A DNA stretch of 64,000 nucleotides from an uncultured Clostridia bacterium (GCA_949286725.1 CASECZ010000005.1:5648-69647); one strand, 5' to 3'; counted from the first letter of the stretch, positions 10,854 to 32,414 are shown. Numbers and translations are program-made. The notes: a model not told the origin generated them from the letters alone.

Positions 10854-10909
10854 GAATTTGACTTCCAAAAATGTGCTTGCGTCAAATTATTTTTTGCGCG
10901 CGCATAGAG

Positions 10910-10938
10910 TTGATTATTCCCGTGTTATTTTGTATAAT
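10910..10938 (+). promoter_or_regulatory. Candidate promoter for rnj
   Basis: TTGATT, 17-nt spacer ending in TG, TATAAT. Confidence 0.5.
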
Positions 10939-11000
10939 ATGACTTAATTGCAGACAACATCAAGAAGGAAAACGGGGCAGGACGTCCCGAAAGGAGTATT

Positions 11001-12632
11001 ATGGCAAAATCGGTTAGAGTCGTGTTTTTGGGCGGCGTGGGCGAAATCGGCAAGAATATGACCGCGCTGGAATACGGCGACGATATCCTCATCGTTGACT
11101 GCGGCGTGGAGTTCCCGCGCGAGGACAGCCCCGGTATCGACGCAATTCTGCCCGACATAACTTACATCAAAGAAAACATCGAAAAGGTTCGCGGCATCGT
11201 GCTGACGCACGGCCACGAGGACCATATCGGCGCAATTCCTTATTATGCGGAGGAACTCAACGTGCCCGTTTACGGCACCGCGCTGACGCTCGGTATGCTC
11301 GAAAGAAAGCTGTCCGACCGCGGTATCAAAGCAAAACTCGTCCGCGTGAAAGAGGGCGACACCGTGTCGCTCGGCTGCTTTGCGGTGGAGTTCATCAAAG
11401 TGGCGCACTCTATGGCAGGCGCCTGTGCGCTGTCGATTACAACGCCGCTCGGTGTTATCTTCGTCACGGGCGACTTCAAAATCGACAACACCCCCATCGA
11501 CGGCAAGAAAACCAATCTTCAACGTATAGCCGAAATCGGCGCAAAGGGCGTTATGCTTATGCTGGGCGAGTCCACCAACGTGGAGCGCAAAGGCTCGTCC
11601 ACTTCCGAAATGGTCGTGGGGCAGGGACTGGAAAGCATTTTCGTAGCCAACGCGGACAAGCGTATCGTCGTGGCGTGTTTCGCTTCGTCCAACTACCGCG
11701 TGCAACAGGTTCTCCGCCTTGCGGAGAAGTACGGCAGGAAAGTCATACTCGCCGGCAGAAGCATGAAAGGTATAGTAGAGGTGGCATCTCGCGTGGGCGA
11801 ACTGGACATTCCCAAAGGGATTATCGTTGACGGAATGGGCAAACTTCCGCCCGAAAAGGTGGTCGTCATCGCAACGGGCTCGCAGGGCGAACCCACCAGC
11901 GCGCTCAACAGGATGAGCCGCGGCGATTTCAACAAGGTTTCGATAGGTCCCGACGACGTGGTCGTGCTTTCGTCCACGCCCATACCCGGCAACGAAAAAT
12001 CCGTCTACGACGTCATAAACAATCTCTTCCGCAAGGGTGCGAACGTCATATACGAAGCGATGAACGAAGTTCACGTTTCCGGTCACGCATACGAAGAGGA
12101 ACTCAAAATCATGCTTTCGCTCGTGCGGCCCAAGTTCTTCATTCCCGTGCACGGCGAATACCGTCACCAGTTCAAGCACGCCGAAATCGCAAAGACGCTC
12201 GGCATACGCGAGAGCAACATAGTCATTCCGAACATCGGCGAGGTTTACGGCGTCAACGCCAACAGCCTCAAACAGCATTCCAACGTGACGGCGGGCAACG
12301 TGTACGTCGACGGCGTCGTGCTTGAAGACGGCAACGCGGTCATCTCCGACCGCCGCAGTCTCGCGGAGTACGGAATGTTGCTGGTTCTCGCGTCCGTCGA
12401 CCTCGAAAAGGGCATTCTTGCGGGCGACTGCGACGTGATAGCGAGAGGTTTCAACCTCACCGACGAAATCGAGCAGGAAATCGCGTCCACCGTGCGCGAC
12501 ACGGTAAACGGCGCCGATTTCGACGAAAATTCTTTGAACGAACTGGCACGTGCGGTCAAAAAAGCCGTGCGCAAACTGTTCTACCGCGACAGACAATTCC
12601 CGATTATCATACCCATAATCGTGGAGGACTGA
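11001..12632 (+). CDS. rnj: Ribonuclease J
   Basis: 543 aa. VRVVFLGGVGEIGKNMTALEY and metallo-beta-lactamase motif THGHEDHIGAIPY; beta-CASP architecture. Confidence 0.92.
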   Translation: MAKSVRVVFLGGVGEIGKNMTALEYGDDILIVDCGVEFPREDSPGIDAILPDITYIKENIEKVRGIVLTHGHEDHIGAIPYYAEELNVPVYGTALTLGMLERKLSDRGIKAKLVRVKEGDTVSLGCFAVEFIKVAHSMAGACALSITTPLGVIFVTGDFKIDNTPIDGKKTNLQRIAEIGAKGVMLMLGESTNVERKGSSTSEMVVGQGLESIFVANADKRIVVACFASSNYRVQQVLRLAEKYGRKVILAGRSMKGIVEVASRVGELDIPKGIIVDGMGKLPPEKVVVIATGSQGEPTSALNRMSRGDFNKVSIGPDDVVVLSSTPIPGNEKSVYDVINNLFRKGANVIYEAMNEVHVSGHAYEEELKIMLSLVRPKFFIPVHGEYRHQFKHAEIAKTLGIRESNIVIPNIGEVYGVNANSLKQHSNVTAGNVYVDGVVLEDGNAVISDRRSLAEYGMLLVLASVDLEKGILAGDCDVIARGFNLTDEIEQEIASTVRDTVNGADFDENSLNELARAVKKAVRKLFYRDRQFPIIIPIIVED

Positions 12633-12648
12633 CCTCGGGGAGGTTGCA

Positions 12649-13746
12649 ATGGAAAGAAAACCCGTCATTCTTATTCTGACTTCGACGGACGAGTACGGCG
12701 ACGTTTCGGAGCGCATTGCCGACGCCGTTCGCTCTCTGGGCACGCACAACGCGGTTGTGGTGAATCAGACGCGCTACGACGGTTACGTGCGCAACAGCGC
12801 GTTTTACAGATGGCTGCGGAAGTATCTGTCCAAATATCCCGTCAAGGCAGAAAAAATAAAAACGCGACTTTCGGGGCTGAGCAGACGTTCCGACAAGGTG
12901 CGCGGCAGAAGCCGACGCATTGCCAATGCCGTCAAACGCTATAATCCCGAATTCGTGCTGACGGTCACGCCTTACGCGCTTGCCGCGCTTGCCGACGCCC
13001 GTGCCAAAATCGGCACGGACTGCAAGACCGTGCACGTCATCAATGCGTTCACTTACGACAAACACGATTTCCCCGCCGACGTCGCGGAAGGGTACATAGT
13101 CGAGAACTCCGACGTCAAGGACGCTCTCGTCGAGGCGGGCGCGGACGCGCGTCACACCATGGTCATGGGGTTGCCGTATCGCGTGCGCACGCTGACGGCG
13201 GACGAACGCGCGGTGCAGAGAGAGGCGAAAAGCCTGCCGCAAAGCCCCACGGTTTTTCTCAACGCGACCGAGGCGGAAAATGCCGAGGAACTGCTTGCGT
13301 TGCTCATCGACCAGGGCAAACTGATAAACACGGTGTGTTACGCCGACACGACCAAACTCATGGCAAAACTCCGCCGTCGCGCAGACGTCGCGTCAGAGCG
13401 CAACAGCGTGGCGATAATATCGCGTCGGGAACAGATAGACGAATTTCTGTCCGTCAGCGACGTTGTCATCACTCATTACGACCCGTCCGTCATATACAAG
13501 AGCATGCAACTGGGCAAACCCGTCATCGCCTTTTCCGATTTCGAGAGGGGCAAACGCGACCTCGAATATTTGCGGGAGCGCGGACTAATAAAATGCGCGG
13601 ACAAGAGCATCGACACGGTCGGGTTGCTGTACGATTTTCTGCAAGCGGACACCGCGGCGCAGTACGCCGAACGCGAACTCGCGCGCACGCAGATGTATTC
13701 CGTCGAGAACCTCGCAAACTATCTCACCGCGCCGGAATTGAATTGA
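12649..13746 (+). CDS. Divergent UgtP/MGDG-synthase-like (GT28-type) glycosyltransferase-fold protein
   Basis: 365 aa. Its overall layout resembles UgtP (N-terminal PVILILTS... strand; C-terminal ...ITHYDPSVIYKSMQLGKPVIA). The Gly-rich N-terminal motif is not conserved. Confidence 0.35.
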   Translation: MERKPVILILTSTDEYGDVSERIADAVRSLGTHNAVVVNQTRYDGYVRNSAFYRWLRKYLSKYPVKAEKIKTRLSGLSRRSDKVRGRSRRIANAVKRYNPEFVLTVTPYALAALADARAKIGTDCKTVHVINAFTYDKHDFPADVAEGYIVENSDVKDALVEAGADARHTMVMGLPYRVRTLTADERAVQREAKSLPQSPTVFLNATEAENAEELLALLIDQGKLINTVCYADTTKLMAKLRRRADVASERNSVAIISRREQIDEFLSVSDVVITHYDPSVIYKSMQLGKPVIAFSDFERGKRDLEYLRERGLIKCADKSIDTVGLLYDFLQADTAAQYAERELARTQMYSVENLANYLTAPELN

Positions 13747-28391: not shown

Positions 28392-29114
28392 ATGAAAGCG
28401 TTGAAAACCGTCGTCAATTATTTCTCGAAATTCGAATTGCTTTTGTGGTGCGCTTCCGTCGTGCTCATCGTGGTGTCTTTCTGCGTTTTCGACAGGCAGA
28501 ATTACATAGCCTTTTCTGCCTCGCTTATCGGCGTTACGTCACTTATCCTTTGCGCGAAAGGCAACCCGCTCGGACAGGTGCTGATGGTCGTTTTCAGCGT
28601 TCTGTACGGCATTATTTCCTACAATTCGGCGTACTACGGCGAAATGATAACCTATCTCGGAATGAGCGCTCCGATGGCGATATTCGCACTTTTCGCATGG
28701 CTTCGCAACCCCTACAAAAATCGACGCTCCGAAGTCAGAGTCAACCGCCTCAAATGGCGCGAAATCGTCTTTGCGCTGTTGCTCACCGCAGGTGTCACGG
28801 TGGCGTTTTACTACATTCTGAGAGAACTCGGAACCGCAAACCTTCTCACCAGCACCGTTTCGGTCGCAACAAGCTTCTTTGCTGTGTATCTTACATTCAG
28901 ACGTTGCGCCTATTTTCCGCTTGCATATGCCGCCAACGACCTTGTGCTCATCGTCCTCTGGTCAATGGCAACCCACGGCGACAAATCGTATGTGTCGGTG
29001 ATAATATGTTTCGTCGTATTTCTTGTCAACGACCTGTATGGCTTTTTCAACTGGTTGCGCATGCAGAAACGCCAAAAAGAGCAGGACGCCGAACTCCCGC
29101 CCGAAAACGAATAA
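28392..29114 (+). CDS. pnuC: Nicotinamide riboside transporter PnuC family
   Basis: 240 aa, 7-8 TM segments. The ...LCAKGNPLGQVLMVVFSVLYGIISY... and C-terminal FFNWLRM regions are typical of PnuC. Confidence 0.8.
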   Translation: MKALKTVVNYFSKFELLLWCASVVLIVVSFCVFDRQNYIAFSASLIGVTSLILCAKGNPLGQVLMVVFSVLYGIISYNSAYYGEMITYLGMSAPMAIFALFAWLRNPYKNRRSEVRVNRLKWREIVFALLLTAGVTVAFYYILRELGTANLLTSTVSVATSFFAVYLTFRRCAYFPLAYAANDLVLIVLWSMATHGDKSYVSVIICFVVFLVNDLYGFFNWLRMQKRQKEQDAELPPENE

Positions 29115-29264
29115 AACTGGGTTTTGCTCATCTCAAATCAAGTAGAGCAGAGCGGTACGAATACAGATGTTTGCTTTTTGTCCGCTTTGTAGTGCCCGTG
29201 TTTTCGATTGTCGGATTATCAATAATCCACAAATCGTCACCATCTGCAGTAAACTTGTCAGGAA

Positions 29265-29317
29265 AAAGAAAAAGAGCACTTGACGTGCTCTTTTTCTGGT
29301 GACCCACCGGAGATTCG
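29265..29317 (-). repeat. Displaced copy of the tRNA-Lys(UUU) 3' end (C56 to CCA, 29297-29317) plus its terminator hairpin (29265-29296)
   Basis: 53/53 identical to 29468-29520. Confidence 0.9.
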
Positions 29318-29467
29318 TAGGAAGTCCAACCGGACTTCCGTAATAGCGAATTGCGTGCATCTGTTGGCGCAACTTGCTTTGCGCCGCACGCAATCAGCGT
29401 CAGTCCGGACTTGTCCGGAGTTCTCTCCGAAGGAGTGCTTACTGCGTAAGCAAATCTCCGTCGGAAT
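29318..29467 (-). other. ORF-less insertion carrying a conserved hairpin module (E-motif); candidate structured RNA or miniature insertion element
   Basis: Lies between the two 53-bp repeats. Positions 29338-29403 are 65/66 identical (in inverted orientation) to 31208-31273. Four hairpins; no credible ORF. Confidence 0.5.
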
Positions 29468-29499
29468 AAAGAAAAAGAGCACTTGACGTGCTCTTTTTC
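29468..29499 (-). terminator. Terminator hairpin of the five-tRNA operon (also the proximal half of the 53-bp repeat)
   Basis: GAAAAAGAGCAC-gtcaa-GTGCTCTTTTTC directly after CCA; symmetric A and T runs. Confidence 0.65.
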
Positions 29500-29575
29500 T
29501 GGTGACCCACCGGAGATTCGAACTCCGGACCATCGCATTAAAAGTGCGGTGCTCTACCTGCTGAGCTAGTGAGTC
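29500..29575 (-). tRNA. tRNA-Lys (anticodon UUU)
   Basis: GACTCAC...CGCACTTTTAATGCG...CGGAGTTCGAATCTCCGGTGGGTCACCA; cloverleaf fits, CCA encoded. Confidence 0.92.
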
Positions 29576-29580
29576 ATTTC

Positions 29581-29655
29581 TGGCAGGGGTAGCTGGATTC
29601 GAACCAACGAATGCCAGAATCAAAATCTGGTGCCTTACCGCTTGGCGATACCCCT
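29581..29655 (-). tRNA. tRNA-Gln (anticodon UUG)
   Basis: AGGGGTATCGCCAAGCGGTAAGGCACCAGATTTTGATTCTGG...GGTTCGAATCCAGCTACCCCTGCCA. Confidence 0.92.
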
Positions 29656-29687
29656 TTGACTCGGTAAGACCGAGATTTGAGTCAATG

Positions 29688-29765
29688 TGGGGTGAGTAGT
29701 GGGATTCGAACCCACGGCCTTCAGGGCCACAACCTGACGCGCTAACCAACTGCGCTATACCCACC
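29688..29765 (-). tRNA. tRNA-His (anticodon GUG) with encoded G-1
   Basis: GGTGGGTATAGCGCAGTTGGTTAGCGCGTCAGGTTGTGGCCCTGA...GGGTTCGAATCCCACTACTCACCCCA. Confidence 0.92.
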
Positions 29766-29769
29766 ATAA

Positions 29770-29846
29770 TGGCGAGCCAGAAGAGATTCGAACTCCCGAC
29801 ACACGGCTTAGAAGGCCGTTGCTCTATCCTGCTGAGCTACTGGCTC
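29770..29846 (-). tRNA. tRNA-Arg (anticodon UCU)
   Basis: GAGCCAGTAGCTCAGCAGGATAGAGCAACGGCCTTCTAAGCCG...GGGAGTTCGAATCTCTTCTGGCTCGCCA. Confidence 0.92.
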
Positions 29847-29851
29847 AAAGT

Positions 29852-29925
29852 TGGAGCGGGTGATGGGAATCGGACCCACGCGACCAGCTTGGAAGGCTGG
29901 TATTCTACCATTGAACTACACCCGC
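29852..29925 (-). tRNA. tRNA-Gly (anticodon UCC), T-loop TCCGATT (C at position 55)
   Basis: GCGGGTGTAGTTCAATGGTAGAATACCAGCCTTCCAAGCTGG...GTGGGTCCGATTCCCATCACCCGCTCCA. Confidence 0.85.
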
Positions 29926-29970
29926 ACGTGTTCCGAGCGCACACCATAAGGCTATTTTCGATGCTTGAAG

Positions 29971-29999
29971 ATTTTACCATACTAAAATGCGCTTGTCAA
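29971..29999 (-). promoter_or_regulatory. Promoter of the Gly-Arg-His-Gln-Lys tRNA operon
   Basis: On the minus strand: TTGACA, 17-nt spacer, TAAAAT, about 45 nt upstream of tRNA-Gly. Confidence 0.55.
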
Positions 30000-30487
30000 C
30001 GATTTTGACATCTTATGACGCAAAGAAAAATGCACGACAGCACTCATTAATAACTATTCGAAGATTTGAAGAAAGAATTTGATTTGTATGGAGGTATCGA
30101 TAAAGTTTTACAACACGATAAGTGTTATATTTTGTCTTACAATCTGCAATGTAAAACACGATACGTGTATATAATATTTTTTTACATAATAATATCCCTT
30201 CCGATAGCGCCGTTTTACTGTCATATCGGCAAATTTAACACACGAAACGTATTTTATATATTTGTGGTATTCTGCCATTACGCATCGACAAACCTGATTA
30301 GACAGGGCGGCTGTAAGACTCCATATGAGATTCGACTGTGAGCATCTTGCTTTCCGAATTTAGGTGCCATTGAAATTTTGATAGAAAATCGTAGAATTAA
30401 CTGATAATACACAACAAAAAAACGGGGAATCTTAAATTGTACGTTTTGGCGTGCCGAAACAACATAAAAAAGTCTATACAGCAGATA
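30000..30487. other. AT-rich non-coding island between the two tRNA clusters
   Basis: By eye, individual 60-nt lines are about 25-35% GC, against about 55-60% in the flanks. Only a TTG-initiated 91-aa ORF of low-complexity composition is present. Confidence 0.6.
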
Positions 30488-30500
30488 ACGCGCAAATAAC

Positions 30501-30532
30501 CTCTGCGCAAATGGTGCAGCCGAAGGGACTTG
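30501..30532 (-). repeat. Displaced copy of the tRNA-Leu(UAG) 3' end (C56 to CCA) plus part of its terminator
   Basis: 32/32 identical to 30698-30729. The adjacent terminator arm is degenerate. Confidence 0.9.
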
Positions 30533-30697
30533 CTCCGCTTGGCTTGTCACCTTACACACGCACTGCACAGGATGACACACACACTCGCACTCCTTTCCGT
30601 TGCCCGCGCTATCACGCCTGGGCGGGGCAACAATTCTTATGGATTGTTGCCTTTTCCGCCCGTTCAAGTCCCGTATAATGAATAATGCGCAGAGAGT
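30533..30697 (-). other. ORF-less insertion behind tRNA-Leu (different sequence family from the Lys inserts)
   Basis: Bounded by the 32-bp repeats. Contains a long hairpin GGGCGG-aaaa-GGCAACAAT...ATTGTTGCC-CCGCCC, a GT-rich tract, and an inverted 11-nt copy of the tRNA T-arm. Confidence 0.5.
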
Positions 30698-30708
30698 CTC
30701 TGCGCAAA

Positions 30709-30791
30709 TGGTGCAGCCGAAGGGACTTGAACCCATACGGTTTCCCACCGGAACCTAAATCCGGCGCGTCTGCCAATTTCGCCACGGCTGC
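30709..30791 (-). tRNA. tRNA-Leu (anticodon UAG)
   Basis: GCAGCCGTGGCGAAATTGGCAGACGCGCCGGATTTAGGTTCCGG...ATGGGTTCAAGTCCCTTCGGCTGCACCA; long variable arm. Confidence 0.88.
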
Positions 30792-30916
30792 AAGCCACTT
30801 TATTATATCATAATCGCCCAAGATGTAAAGCAAAAGCCCTCTGCCACGGAAAATTGCACAATTAGCGAAAAATCTCTTGCTTTTTTTACAATAGTTTGTT
30901 ATATTAGTACTCGCTC

Positions 30917-30991
30917 GCGGGAGTGACTCAGTGGTAGAGTGTCACCTTGCCAAGGTGAAAGTCGCGGGTCCGAATCCCGTCTCCCGCTCCA
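30917..30991 (+). tRNA. tRNA-Gly (anticodon GCC), T-loop TCCGAAT (C at position 55)
   Basis: GCGGGAGTGACTCAGTGGTAGAGTGTCACCTTGCCAAGGTGAAAGTCGCGGGTCCGAATCCCGTCTCCCGCTCCA. Confidence 0.88.
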
Positions 30992-31040
30992 TTCCAAAGT
31001 TAGCGACGATGACCGCAAATTGCGTATTCGTCGCGAAAAT

Positions 31041-31116
31041 GCGCCCTTAGCTCAGCTGGTAGAGCAACTGACTCTTAATCAGTGGGTCCCGGGTTCGAAT
31101 CCCTGAGGGCGCACCA
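31041..31116 (+). tRNA. tRNA-Lys (anticodon CUU)
   Basis: GCGCCCTTAGCTCAGCTGGTAGAGCAACTGACTCTTAATCAGTGGGTCCCGGGTTCGAATCCCTGAGGGCGCACCA. Has one C50:U64 mismatch in the T-stem. Confidence 0.85.
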
Positions 31117-31224
31117 AAAACACCGCTAAATGCGGTGTTATTCTTTTGCCCGAAGGGATTTATATTTCCAATATCCGCCTTATGGCGGAGAACCCGGGCA
31201 CACCCGGCTGACGCTGATTGCGTG
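31096..31224 (+). repeat. First copy of the 200-bp-period repeat. Contents: tRNA-Lys(CUU) C56 to CCA, terminator, spacer, and the 5' part of the E-motif
   Basis: Aligns to 31296-31426. 96/98 identical over the first 98 nt, then a swapped hairpin, then an identical CTGACGCTGATTGCGTG. Confidence 0.9.
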
Positions 31225-31295
31225 CGGCGCAAAGCGAGTTGCGCCAACAGATGCACGCAATTCGCTATTACGGCAGCCGCTGGGCTTGCTGCCTA
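31175..31295 (+). other. Complete E-motif copy (hp0, AGAAC, hp1, 66-nt core, hp3, TA) ending at the displaced tRNA-Lys(CUU) 3' fragment
   Basis: Core 31208-31273 is 65/66 identical to the reverse complement of 29338-29403. The flanking hairpins are compensatory variants of those at 29318-29435. Confidence 0.5.
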
Positions 31296-31426
31296 CGAAT
31301 CCCTGAGGGCGCACCAAAAACACCGCTAAATGCGGTGTTTTTCTTTTGCCCGAAGGGATTTATATTTCCAATATCCGCCTCATGGCGGAGAACTCCGGAC
31401 AAGTCCGGACTGACGCTGATTGCGTG
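31296..31426 (+). repeat. Second, truncated repeat unit. Contents: displaced tRNA 3' fragment 31296-31316, terminator, spacer, hp0, hp1, first 17 nt of the core
   Basis: Similarity to the full unit stops after GATTGCGTG at 31426. Its hp1 is the TCCGGAcaagTCCGGA variant seen at the Lys(UUU) locus. Confidence 0.85.
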
Positions 31427-31538
31427 AGCGCTAACGGAAAAGCTGCTGACAAACCGATATAACAGGATTTCGTTGAAATAAAACGCGTGGTTAGAATAGT
31501 GAAATACGGCTTATTTTTACCGATTGGTGTTGAAATGT

Positions 31539-32414
31539 TCAGCGTTCGGAAGAGGACATTGCCTGATATTCCGAAGGGGTAAGCCCTGTGACCTGTTTGA
31601 ATTTGCGTATGAAATACGCGGGGTCGTCGTAGCCGACTTCCGCGGCGACGGCTTGTATTTTGATGCTGCGGTTTTGGAGCAGTTCTTTTGCTTTGCTTAT
31701 TCGCATTGAGAGTATATACTGCGACAACGTGGTTTTCATTGTCTGGCTGAACAGTCTGGAAAAATAGGTCGGGCTCACCATACACAGCGCCGCGAGTTCG
31801 TGTATCGTGATTTGCGACTTGTAATGTTGTTCGATATAGCGCAGGGCGGGTTGCAATTTGTTGTAATTGCTCGCGGTTTTCGTCGAATGGTCTTCGAGTT
31901 CCAGCAGAATGCCGAAATGATTGATGTAATCCGCAAGTTTTGAAACGAGTTTGGACATTTCCAAAAAGCGTTCTTCCTCGACTTGCGGCATATTGTCATA
32001 TATTTTTTTGAGTTCGGGGTGGTTTTCGAGGGAAATGGGTGCGTAGATATAGTCCAGCTTGTCATCGGAAATGTTCGAACGGGTGGACCCGCCGCAGATT
32101 GCACCGATGTGTTCCCCCTTATAAAAGAGAGGCACAGAAAAATCTATAAGTCCGTAAGCGCACTTGTAGTAGTGGGTTTTGCCTCGGCGGGCCGCTTCGA
32201 AGGATGCGTGACTTGCCGCCGCAAGGCAAGCCGTGCGGATTGCGGGGTCCTGGCGCGCGCACTTGCAGAAAATGGCGTCGTTGCAGGGGTAGATGATGAT
32301 GTTGCCGAGCGTATCCAACACGCACAGATTCATCCCCGTTGCCTTTGCAACGGAGTCCAGAGTCAATGTAAGCTTGTCCAGCGATACTATCTCTTCGAGT
32401 CTGTGTGAAGTCAT
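31539..32414 (-). CDS. AraC-family transcriptional regulator with N-terminal PocR sensory domain
   Basis: 291 aa. PocR-like N-terminus (CKCARQDPAIRTAC...YYKCAYGLIDFSVPLFYKGEHIGAICGG) and a C-terminal AraC HTH (ITIHELAALCMVSPTYFSRLFSQ...GYDDPAYFIRKFKQVTG). Confidence 0.85.
   Translation of the reverse strand: MTSHRLEEIVSLDKLTLTLDSVAKATGMNLCVLDTLGNIIIYPCNDAIFCKCARQDPAIRTACLAAASHASFEAARRGKTHYYKCAYGLIDFSVPLFYKGEHIGAICGGSTRSNISDDKLDYIYAPISLENHPELKKIYDNMPQVEEERFLEMSKLVSKLADYINHFGILLELEDHSTKTASNYNKLQPALRYIEQHYKSQITIHELAALCMVSPTYFSRLFSQTMKTTLSQYILSMRISKAKELLQNRSIKIQAVAAEVGYDDPAYFIRKFKQVTGLTPSEYQAMSSSER

Follow-up and report, generated by a model that had tools for sequence, protein, structure and literature searches.

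What is the 66-nt sequence that recurs, almost letter for letter, behind the two tRNA-Lys genes of an uncultured Clostridia bacterium, and does it belong to a structured RNA? The sequence was pointed out in a 64,000-nt stretch of DNA (hereafter "the window") by a sequence-only reading, which named it the E-motif and proposed it as a candidate structured RNA. As that reading claimed, the reverse complement of positions 29338-29403 and the plus strand of 31208-31273 are identical at 65 of 66 nt, and the lone A/G mismatch of the two copies lies within the apical loop, AGC[A/G]AG. A 17-mer present three times and a 20-mer present twice in the window make up a count that was reached in none of 100 shuffles of the window. 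All parts that the reading named are present, but it overlooked a truncated third copy, which contains only the first 17 nt of the core (31410-31426). This fragment ends a 39-nt segment (31388-31426) that equals locus A exactly, from GAGAAC through the hairpin hp1 to core position 17, after which unrelated DNA begins. Each of the three copies within the 64-kb window lies behind a tRNA-Lys gene.

The core begins with CTGACGC, ends with GCTATTACGG, and is built around a 10-bp outer stem, GATTGCGTGC/GCACGCAATT. Its interior consists of the 7-bp stem GGCGCAA/TTGCGCC and the 7-nt bulge AACAGAT; the sequence of inner hairpin plus bulge is GGCGCAAAGCGAGTTGCGCCAACAGAT. In copy A, on the minus strand at 29338-29403, the inner loop is AGCAAG. 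Copy B1, on the plus strand at 31208-31273, is recognized both by its identity to copy A and by a covariance-model match. The fold drawn in the sequence-only reading (10-bp stem, inner stem and AACAGAT bulge) is the minimum-energy fold at both loci. That reading had also suggested building a covariance model from the copies. Such a model scores locus A at 130.6 bits (29312-29425) and locus B1 at 120.7 bits (31188-31301), but yields no further copies in any other locus examined. The impression that the sequence belongs to no named RNA family also held: an Rfam cmscan of 29000-31700 at E <= 10 returned only tRNAs and chance matches.

Two simple origins for the core were considered and rejected. 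A degenerate pseudo-tRNA, in direct or inverted orientation, gives collinear short matches, but the scores are not above those of shuffles on either strand. A small protein is not a good explanation either: open frames cross the core, are unconserved beyond it and are without start signals. Only spurious reading frames traverse the interior of the unit described below (140-180 nt), and a search of core translations against 5.8 billion proteins led back to locus A in this species and to nothing else; one of the sequences retrieved was a deletion variant.

The E-motif forms the conserved hairpin core of a unit of approximately 200 nt. Such a unit is linked to the 3' end of both tRNA-Lys genes, which lie at the two ends of a cluster of eight tRNA genes extending from 29500 to 31116. 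At locus A the unit measures 203 nt, and at locus B 200 nt. This repeat unit, with its terminator and two further hairpins, was overlooked by the sequence-only reading. In the sense of the tRNA, the parts follow in the order 21-mer, terminator, I1, hpX, hp0, AGAAC, hp1, CTGACGC-core-GCTATTACGG, hp3, TA, 21-mer, terminator.

At locus A, all parts lie on the minus strand. The gene for tRNA-Lys(UUU) (29500-29575, detected by ARAGORN and Rfam) is the last of a Gly-Arg-His-Gln-Lys operon, and its last 21 nt, from C56 of the T-loop to CCA, constitute the first copy of the 21-mer, D1 (CGAATCTCCGGTGGGTCACCA, 29500-29520). Adjoining the gene is an intrinsic terminator with a 12-bp stem and a T-run (29471-29499). 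It is followed by I1, a partial inverted copy of the 3' part of the tRNA (CCGACGGAGATTTG, 29451-29464), by hpX (TGCTTAC-gca-GTAAGCA, 29436-29452), by hp0 (CTCC-ttc-GGAG, 29425-29435), and by the AGAAC linker with hp1 (TCCGGA-caag-TCCGGA, together 29404-29424). Beyond the core are hp3 (GGAAGTCC-ggtt-GGACTTCC, 29320-29339), an invariant TA (29318-29319), the second copy of the tRNA 21-mer, D2 (29297-29317), and the distal terminator, which is a second copy of the first (29268-29296).

Locus B repeats this order on the plus strand, behind tRNA-Lys(CUU) (31041-31116, ARAGORN), whose last 21 nt form its D1 (CGAATCCCTGAGGGCGCACCA, 31096-31116). The left part of unit B1 (31117-31207) holds the terminator (31119-31139), I1 (GCCCGAAGGGATTT, 31148-31161), hpX (31162-31174), hp0 (CCGCC-ttat-GGCGG, 31175-31188) with AGAAC directly after it, and hp1 (CCGGG-caca-CCCGG, 31194-31207). 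To the right of the core are hp3 (GGCAGC-N10-GCTGCC, 31272-31293), TA (31294-31295) and the D2 21-mer (31296-31316). Next to B1 lies a truncated second unit, B2 (31317-31426), with terminator, I1, hpX, hp0, GAGAAC, hp1 and core positions 1-17; past position 17 it runs into unrelated sequence, AGCGCTAACGG.... Thus, hp0, hp1, hp3, the AGAAC linker, the TA, the 21-mer and the terminator were each found as the sequence-only reading had written them.

Several of these parts are related to the adjacent tRNA. The start of the 21-mer is complementary to I1, and in the minimum-energy folds of A and B1 their pairing leaves ...ACCA single-stranded. At locus A, I1 is paired with the distal 21-mer and closes a string of hairpins; likewise, the units A and B1 and that of a related species (L137, below) all fold at minimum energy into an I1/distal 21-mer closing helix, five internal hairpins and a free CCA tail. 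The hairpin hp1 consists of two copies of the palindromic T-stem hexamer, TCCGGA or CCCGGG, that matches the local tRNA. Moreover, GAACTCCGGAC (29413-29423) matches, inverted, the 5' half of the tRNA-Lys(UUU) T-arm at 11/11 positions, with a score reached by none of 300 shuffles, and GAACCCGGG (31190-31198) is a 9/9 inverted copy of the tRNA-Lys(CUU) T-arm (p about 0.08 from shuffles). The earlier reading was right that hp1 is a hairpin, but overlooked that AGAAC and the 5' arm of hp1 are an inverted copy of the tRNA T-arm.

The whole unit folds far better than dinucleotide shuffles in the tRNA sense (z = -9.0 for A and -7.1 for B), as does the antisense strand (z = -9.2 and -5.7). In unit A, about 41 of 42 pairs in the hairpin stems, as counted in the sequence, are Watson-Crick. 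In four units, the tRNA-sense strand has 3, 4, 1 and 6 G-U pairs versus 1, 1, 0 and 1 in the antisense, and its fold is the more stable one in three of the four. Several hairpins have triloops (GCA, GTA, TTC and TTT). The terminators of the units are canonical intrinsic terminators, one of which separates the tRNA from each unit, and a search for a sigma-70-like promoter inside the units found none.

Homologues were sought by scanning metagenomes for two copies of the tRNA-Lys 3' end located 160-190 nt apart. This anchored scan gave 12 loci, of which three (L137, the overlapping L133, and L138) contain E-motif homologues. L137 and L133 represent a congeneric species: across some 12 kb of flanking genes they match the window at approximately 80% of nucleotides, and in the tRNA cluster itself at 88%. 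A unit of 201 nt behind tRNA-Lys(UUU) in L137 agrees with those of the window in the order of its parts and in its minimum-energy architecture. Behind tRNA-Lys(CUU), the same species carries the right half of the core, hp3, TA, the 21-mer and a B-type terminator, fused to the remnant of an integrase. On the more distant contig L138, the central hairpin is shorter, and the inner hairpin and bulge have been replaced.

Comparison of these sequences reveals two kinds of conservation. No copy departs from the others in the linkers GAAC, CTGACGC, GCTATTACGG and CCTA|CGAAT, and L137 has the same inner hairpin, GGCGCAA-AGCGAG-TTGCGCC, and the same AACAGAT bulge as the window. Between these two, the outer stem has gone from GATTGCGTGC/GCACGCAATT to GTTTGCAATC/GATTGCAAAC, with four compensatory pairs. 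In an alignment of six sequences, 95% of cells pair, versus 25-41% when the partners are slid by 1-3 columns, and seven pairs, four of them in this outer stem, have changed on both sides, a number that none of 500 shuffles reached. The regions of hpX and hp0 have unrelated sequences in four variants, and the two hairpins are always there. The distal 21-mer is identical to the tRNA at 21 of 21 positions in every variant, although neighboring hairpins have been replaced.

These observations bear on the claim that the element is not a neutral scar, and they uphold it: homologues exist, helices are kept by compensatory changes, and linkers are invariant. The absence of homologues, or of covariation among them, had been named in advance as what would refute the proposal; the search was run and found homologues with compensatory changes. 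The claim that the flanking helices covary holds in so far as compensatory changes occur in the homologues, but the apparent covariation of hp1 tracks the local T-stem, as seen in GAACTCCGGAC versus GAACCCGGG. Since the difference in hp1 between the loci follows the T-stem of each tRNA, it is not independent evidence for a helix. Moreover, the Lys(UUU) and Lys(CUU) copies within each genome (the window and L137) share a species-specific stem and therefore evolve in concert. For this reason, the independent compensatory events are few: the outer stem contributes a single comparison between species, and hp3 adds some further events. With these limits, the element is a conserved structure, foldable in single-stranded form, inside a repeat unit linked to tRNA 3' ends, and we consider it very probable that it is a selected structured module of a unit of the type found with RtT RNA in E. 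coli, as described below.

The sequence family seems narrow in the collections that we searched. In 185,579 species genomes (GTDB), the 17-mer had 79 exact matches, all of them chance. In IMG/VR, the 17-mer found chance matches only, and the 20-mer, the inner hairpin and the linker pattern found nothing; the three-linker pattern had no match over JGI metagenomes, and blastn against phages and plasmids produced chance matches only. In the sister species L106-L113, neither nhmmer nor blastn detected relatives of the E-motif, and the corresponding place in L106 is taken by a unit of another kind. L106 and L141/L143, which were reached via PnuC/metallophosphoesterase orthologues, carry other unit types. 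When related species were walked in this manner, synteny mostly ended, or contigs broke at the tRNA cluster.

Within the species, the units come and go. About twenty conspecific contigs from one set of ENA assemblies were reached via two flanking proteins. Unit A could be assessed in 12 assemblies: four have it (the window included), seven lack it, and in one it is cut by a microhomology deletion that extends from the core to the distal terminator. The empty site consists of exactly the tRNA, the terminator and the flank, with a single copy of the 21-mer. Unit B1 is present in 10 assemblies and absent from one, and the truncated B2 was found in all assemblies that cover locus B. In one allele of A, a T>G substitution disrupts a pair of the 10-bp stem. 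In a short tract, the B2 of the window has several differences that set it apart from every other strain and make it agree with A or B1; this is a gene-conversion tract from one of them. What the sequence-only reading called inserts are better described as RtT-type units on the tRNA 3' end whose presence varies by strain. Their number changes by recombination between the tRNA-derived direct repeats, and copies within one genome are homogenized by gene conversion; concerted evolution, or recent copying inside the genome, explains why the two copies in the window are nearly identical. Homologous recombination between the repeats accounts for the precise presence or absence of units as well as site-specific excision does.

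The closest known parallel lies in another phylum. Repeats of 178 bp behind the E. coli tyrT gene have been known for decades, and we know of no accepted function or origin for the RtT RNA. In the annotation of the tyrT-tyrV locus are the sRNA rttR, whose 3' end is the CCA of the tRNA-Tyr 3' copy, and tpr. The E. coli units, of 178 nt, close with the final 19 nt of tRNA-Tyr, a stretch that begins within the T-loop, and they contain an inverted copy of the T-stem/acceptor strand of the tRNA, GGGGAAGGAT. In the Rfam consensus (RF00391), this inverted copy pairs with the tRNA-Tyr 3' copy (GGGGAAGGAU with AUCCUUCCCC) and thereby encloses a domain of several hairpins, with CCACCA left as an unpaired tail. 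The rtT RNA is encoded by one repeat unit (PMC3318445), and its role is still unsettled (bioRxiv 10.1101/2024.07.17.603846).

The two systems correspond in plan. In both, units of about 180-200 nt lie behind the last tRNA gene of an operon and end in an exact copy of the tRNA 3' end from the T-loop (19 nt in E. coli, 21 nt here). In both, an inverted copy of T-stem and acceptor sequence closes a helix with the copy of the tRNA end and leaves a single-stranded ...CCA tail, hairpins occupy the inside of the unit, and the number of units is variable or fractional. They also differ. There is no sequence or covariance-model similarity: RF00391, with a gathering threshold of 45 bits, has no match here at E <= 10, whereas four E. 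coli RtT units used as a control scored 133-138 bits in the same cmscan. The tRNA is tRNA-Lys here and tRNA-Tyr in E. coli. Here, each copy of the tRNA end has an intrinsic terminator behind it, in contrast to E. coli, in which none is located between tRNA and unit. The internal hairpins are unrelated, and the Clostridia units have no tpr-like small ORF. The E-motif is thus a new sequence family on a known but obscure plan.

Other units, unrelated in sequence, share this plan. A 197-nt unit behind tRNA-Leu(UAG) in the window has an 11/11 inverted copy, GGGACTTGAAC; the L106 unit likewise has one of 11/11 (GAGATTCGAAC), and the L131 unit one of 16/16. An Eremiobacterota contig (L048) has a 159-nt unit of the same plan behind tRNA-Leu(CAG). 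In the L129-type family, the direct repeat is present, but a clear inverted copy is absent.

By analogy with E. coli, our tentative first choice, although we would not give it an even chance, is that the E-unit is expressed as an RtT-like RNA by read-through from the tRNA operon. RNA polymerase would read through the tRNA terminator and transcribe the unit on the tRNA-sense strand, and I1 would pair with the distal 21-mer to form an acceptor-like closing helix with an ...ACCA tail and the string of hairpins inside. The enzymes that process tRNA ends might then free a stable structured RNA with a tRNA-like 3' end, in which the invariant inner hairpin, bulge and linkers could serve as a contact surface for a protein or RNA partner. 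We rank this explanation first because the architecture matches an RNA that is made in E. coli, because conserved junctions with variable helices typify structured RNAs, because the tRNA-sense strand is richer in G-U pairs and is usually the more stable, and because an exact tRNA end with a terminator would define the 3' end.

Several features argue against an RNA, and the first three of them weaken the proposal of a structured RNA in the sequence-only reading. A strong terminator, which the units of E. coli lack, precedes every unit and no promoter lies inside; nearly all pairs in the stems are Watson-Crick; and the antisense folds nearly as well. Several loops have only three nucleotides, a size more characteristic of hairpins in DNA. 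The units are also dispensable, as seen in the absence of unit A from seven of 12 assemblies, the microhomology deletion and the stem-breaking T>G change. Finally, hp1 and I1 follow the local tRNA, which a recombination site would explain more directly.

This last point leads to the foremost rival, which we regard as possible but somewhat doubtful: the unit is a miniature att-flanked DNA element, either resembling a CIME (cis-mobilizable element) or an attP-only satellite, that is a remnant or parasite of integrative elements crossing over in the T-loop of tRNA genes (class II). The 21-mers would be attL and attR, and the terminator after each, of the sort that an integrative element must bring along, would keep the tRNA gene working. 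The hairpins and the T-stem half-site copies (I1 and hp1) would be recognized as DNA, possibly folded in single-stranded form, and a helper integrase would drive the gain, loss or co-mobilization of units. The direct repeats, which extend from the T-loop to CCA, correspond to the identity block of phage Ms6, which represents class II integration sites with identity from the T-loop to the tRNA 3' end (PMC1762012). The precise presence or absence of units in conspecific strains with identical flanks, and the occurrence of tandem and partial units, fit this explanation, as do the palindromic hexamers of hp1, which match the T-stem of the local tRNA.

The locus is also a hot spot for such elements in other strains and species. 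In some strains, an 8-kb tyrosine-integrase element with a 45-nt att repeat occupies the anticodon loop of tRNA-Lys(CUU), and in another strain a serine-recombinase prophage cuts into tRNA-Lys(UUU). Decayed integrases are found as well: the remnant in L137 consists of the last 55 codons and is 91% identical to the integrase of the 8-kb element. The ends of that element are unrelated to the E-motif, and the terminator region of unit B resembles its attL arm (p about 0.05), which counts in favor of an att element. The L138 unit has on one side the end of a phage-like element, with a repeat that starts AGTTCGAAT, and on the other the C-terminal remnant of an integrase, an arrangement that follows the pattern of CIME accretion; accretion of elements at tRNA sites has been described for CIMEs (PMC5704250).

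CIMEs are decayed integrative elements that have retained attL and attR. The likeness of the units to CIMEs and Ms6 comprises attL/attR-like repeats from the T-loop to the tRNA 3' end, an interior with no recombinase or other integration or transfer genes, tandem arrangement with decayed elements, and polymorphism among strains. The units differ from CIMEs in that no related full-length element was found and in that the interior consists of covarying hairpins and not of arm-type repeats. A CIME is expected to be far larger than a gene-less unit of 200 bp. Neither a full-length element with the same ends nor a T-loop-specific integrase turned up in the GTDB 17-mer scan, IMG/VR, JGI metagenomes, phages or plasmids, and no integrase gene was found within about 10 kb on either side of the tRNA cluster. 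The hp3-CCTA|CGAAT junction, as read from the sequence, is without the dyad symmetry of tyrosine-recombinase core sites. Double-stranded arm sites need no hairpins; therefore, under this explanation the compensatory changes require a single-stranded DNA intermediate. The two species, which differ by 12-20%, share both occupied loci, which looks like vertical descent, and a DNA circle of 200 bp is a poor substrate for recombination.

A folded site would resemble integron attC sites or the folded attP of phage CTX, a likeness that we take to be a lead. There too, structure is kept while stems vary, short unpaired features are conserved, and tandem copies are possible; the helix of I1 and the 21-mer here rebuilds a duplex copy of the target. 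The units are nevertheless not attC sites: the foot of the helix, CGAATCTCC/GGAGATTTG, does not correspond to the R''/R' boxes (RYYYAAC/GTTRRRY), there is no integron integrase or attI, and the target is the tRNA T-loop. An IS200/IS605-type end (TTAC in GCTATTACGG) and a rolling-circle nick site (TATTAC) were rejected as mere resemblances that have no matching enzyme gene or boundary. Dispersed repeats (REP/BIME or MITE) share with the units that they are short, noncoding, hairpin-forming and multicopy. They were rejected since the copies here are not dispersed (only three in 64 kb, all behind tRNA-Lys) and have no terminal inverted repeats with short target duplications; instead, the repeats flanking each unit are 50-130 nt of tRNA end plus terminator. 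The RtT-like RNA and a mobile element are compatible, in that the unit may be a remnant of a mobile element that was later kept for its RNA.

It is quite unlikely, in our estimation, that the unit is a functionless by-product of replication or recombination errors at a hairpin-rich, highly transcribed tRNA end. Template switching or fold-back would build the direct and inverted copies, unequal recombination would alter their number, and the hairpins would be perfect because inverted duplication makes them. Such a process would suit the inverted copies of T-arm or variable arm that lie roughly mirror-symmetrically around the terminator in unrelated units (GGGACTTGAAC, GAGATTCGAAC, L131, L048 and RtT), the breakpoints in hairpin loops, the nearly all-Watson-Crick stems with both strands folding, and the decay of units through microhomology deletion. 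It does not suit the pattern of change, because uniform decay is not seen: no copy shows a change in the linkers, and the inner hairpin and bulge are the same in the window and L137, yet over this distance the outer stem changed compensatorily at four pairs and hpX and hp0 were replaced by other hairpins. Nor does it account for a distal 21-mer that always equals the tRNA at 21 of 21 positions, or for a core that has no significant similarity to tRNA on either strand.

Very unlikely is a double-stranded or cruciform signal of the host (protein sites, or extra terminators and insulation at the ends of strong tRNA operons that face convergent genes), since the location of units only at operon ends, where they add a bidirectional terminator, the palindromic hexamers of hp1 and the conserved sequence of inner hairpin and bulge are outweighed by most stems varying with their pairing kept, when sequence-specific sites should stay constant, by many strains having no unit and no compensating change, and by the extra terminator being a mere copy of the native one.

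A broader proposal would unite the E-units, the tRNA-Leu unit of the window, at least four other tRNA-Lys-linked metagenome families, the Eremiobacterota unit and RtT in one unrecognized, phylum-spanning class of cassette-like modules of about 160-200 nt at tRNA hairpin loops. Their direct and inverted copies of tRNA ends would fold into a duplex image, and they would spread via this folded site, as attC cassettes do, or act as RNAs that mimic the 3' end of uncharged tRNA. We consider this proposal conceivable but improbable as a whole.

What the E-motif means for the RtT family is that the RtT-type plan is a general class rather than an enterobacterial oddity, represented by unrelated sequences behind tRNA-Lys and tRNA-Leu in gut Clostridia and apparently in other phyla. 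Metagenome assemblies are interrupted by such units at tRNA clusters; the units are also wrongly annotated as proteins (P0121) and can be confused with the att sites of prophages. The isolated puzzle of RtT in E. coli thereby becomes a comparative problem, for which strains that differ by one unit provide natural one-unit knock-outs.

Units ending in a copied tRNA 3' end are not confined to tRNA-Lys genes. A third unit in the window lies behind tRNA-Leu(UAG) (30512-30729, minus strand). It has a period of 197 nt and is unrelated in sequence to the E-units, the hairpin repeat units located 3' of the tRNA-Lys genes. Its duplicated segment consists of the last 21 nt of the tRNA plus the terminator, with the 21-nt stretches at 30709-30729 and 30512-30532. 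An inverted T-arm copy, GGGACTTGAAC, matches at 11/11 positions (30662-30672), and a long hairpin, GGGCGG...CCGCCC, is also present. All conspecific contigs that reach this unit are free of differences within it.

Behind tRNA-Lys(UUU) genes in metagenomes, we found at least four more families, mutually unrelated, whose units are approximately 180 to 240 nt long. Units of this kind occur in the metagenome loci L127, L129, L130, L134 and L136, in L131, in the sister species (L106, 8000-8282), and in the comparison contigs L141 (7700-8038) and L143 (8000-8606). Most include both direct and inverted tRNA-end pieces, some are arranged in tandems of two or three, and contigs frequently break at them. 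Also, a 159-nt unit follows tRNA-Leu(CAG) in an Eremiobacterota genome (L048, 3094-3340). There, the repeated segment is the last 38 nt, starting in the variable-arm loop, and the tRNA is followed by a copy of this arm in inverted orientation (GGTGTTGCCACC).

The tRNA-Lys genes also carry integrated elements. In some strains, the anticodon loop of tRNA-Lys(CUU) is the site of a tyrosine-integrase element of approximately 8 kb (L089, 12733-14036; L098, 11100-20100; and L101), which has a 45-nt att repeat beginning CTTAATCAGTGGG and GATGTCAA repeats in its arms. In two related species, the sister species (L106, 7345-7460) and a congeneric species (L137, 2443-2695), this site holds decayed remnants. 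In another strain, L092, a prophage (10866-13142) encoding a LexA-like repressor and a large serine recombinase has inserted into tRNA-Lys(UUU), within the 3' strand of the acceptor. The insertion lies upstream of unit A, the E-unit behind that gene, and the recombinase gene call extends through the E-unit.

Two gene calls at unit A are spurious. The 169-aa reading frame P0121 (window 29258-29767, minus strand) spans tRNA-His, tRNA-Gln, tRNA-Lys and unit A, and is listed as a protein in NCBI and ENA. The 175-aa P0122, likewise spurious, comes from a deletion variant.

Two strain assemblies have unusual tRNA-Lys(CUU) alleles (L091, 6280-6330; L096, 11298-11372). One exhibits a 21-nt duplication inside the gene, in the D-arm region, and the other a 75-nt variant that ARAGORN calls as tRNA-Leu(taa). 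Either could be a true variant or have arisen in assembly.

At a larger scale, the two tRNA operons do not follow one another in the same order in the window, L106 and L137. Moreover, the Gly-Arg-His-Gln-Lys operon has opposite orientations in L141 (8039-8463) and L144 (7902-8325) beside the same flanking protein, a pattern suggestive of inversion polymorphism at this cluster.

Exchange between unit copies is also indicated. In B2, the truncated second unit behind tRNA-Lys(CUU), the window differs from every other strain (L086-L105) at several sites within one short tract (31348-31409): T>C in the loop of the first hairpin, hpX, CCTTAC>CCTCAT, and GGTGAAC-CCGG>GGAGAACTCCGG. Because the window-specific sequence agrees with that of B1, the preceding unit, or of unit A, this comparison identifies B2 as carrying a gene-conversion tract between unit copies.
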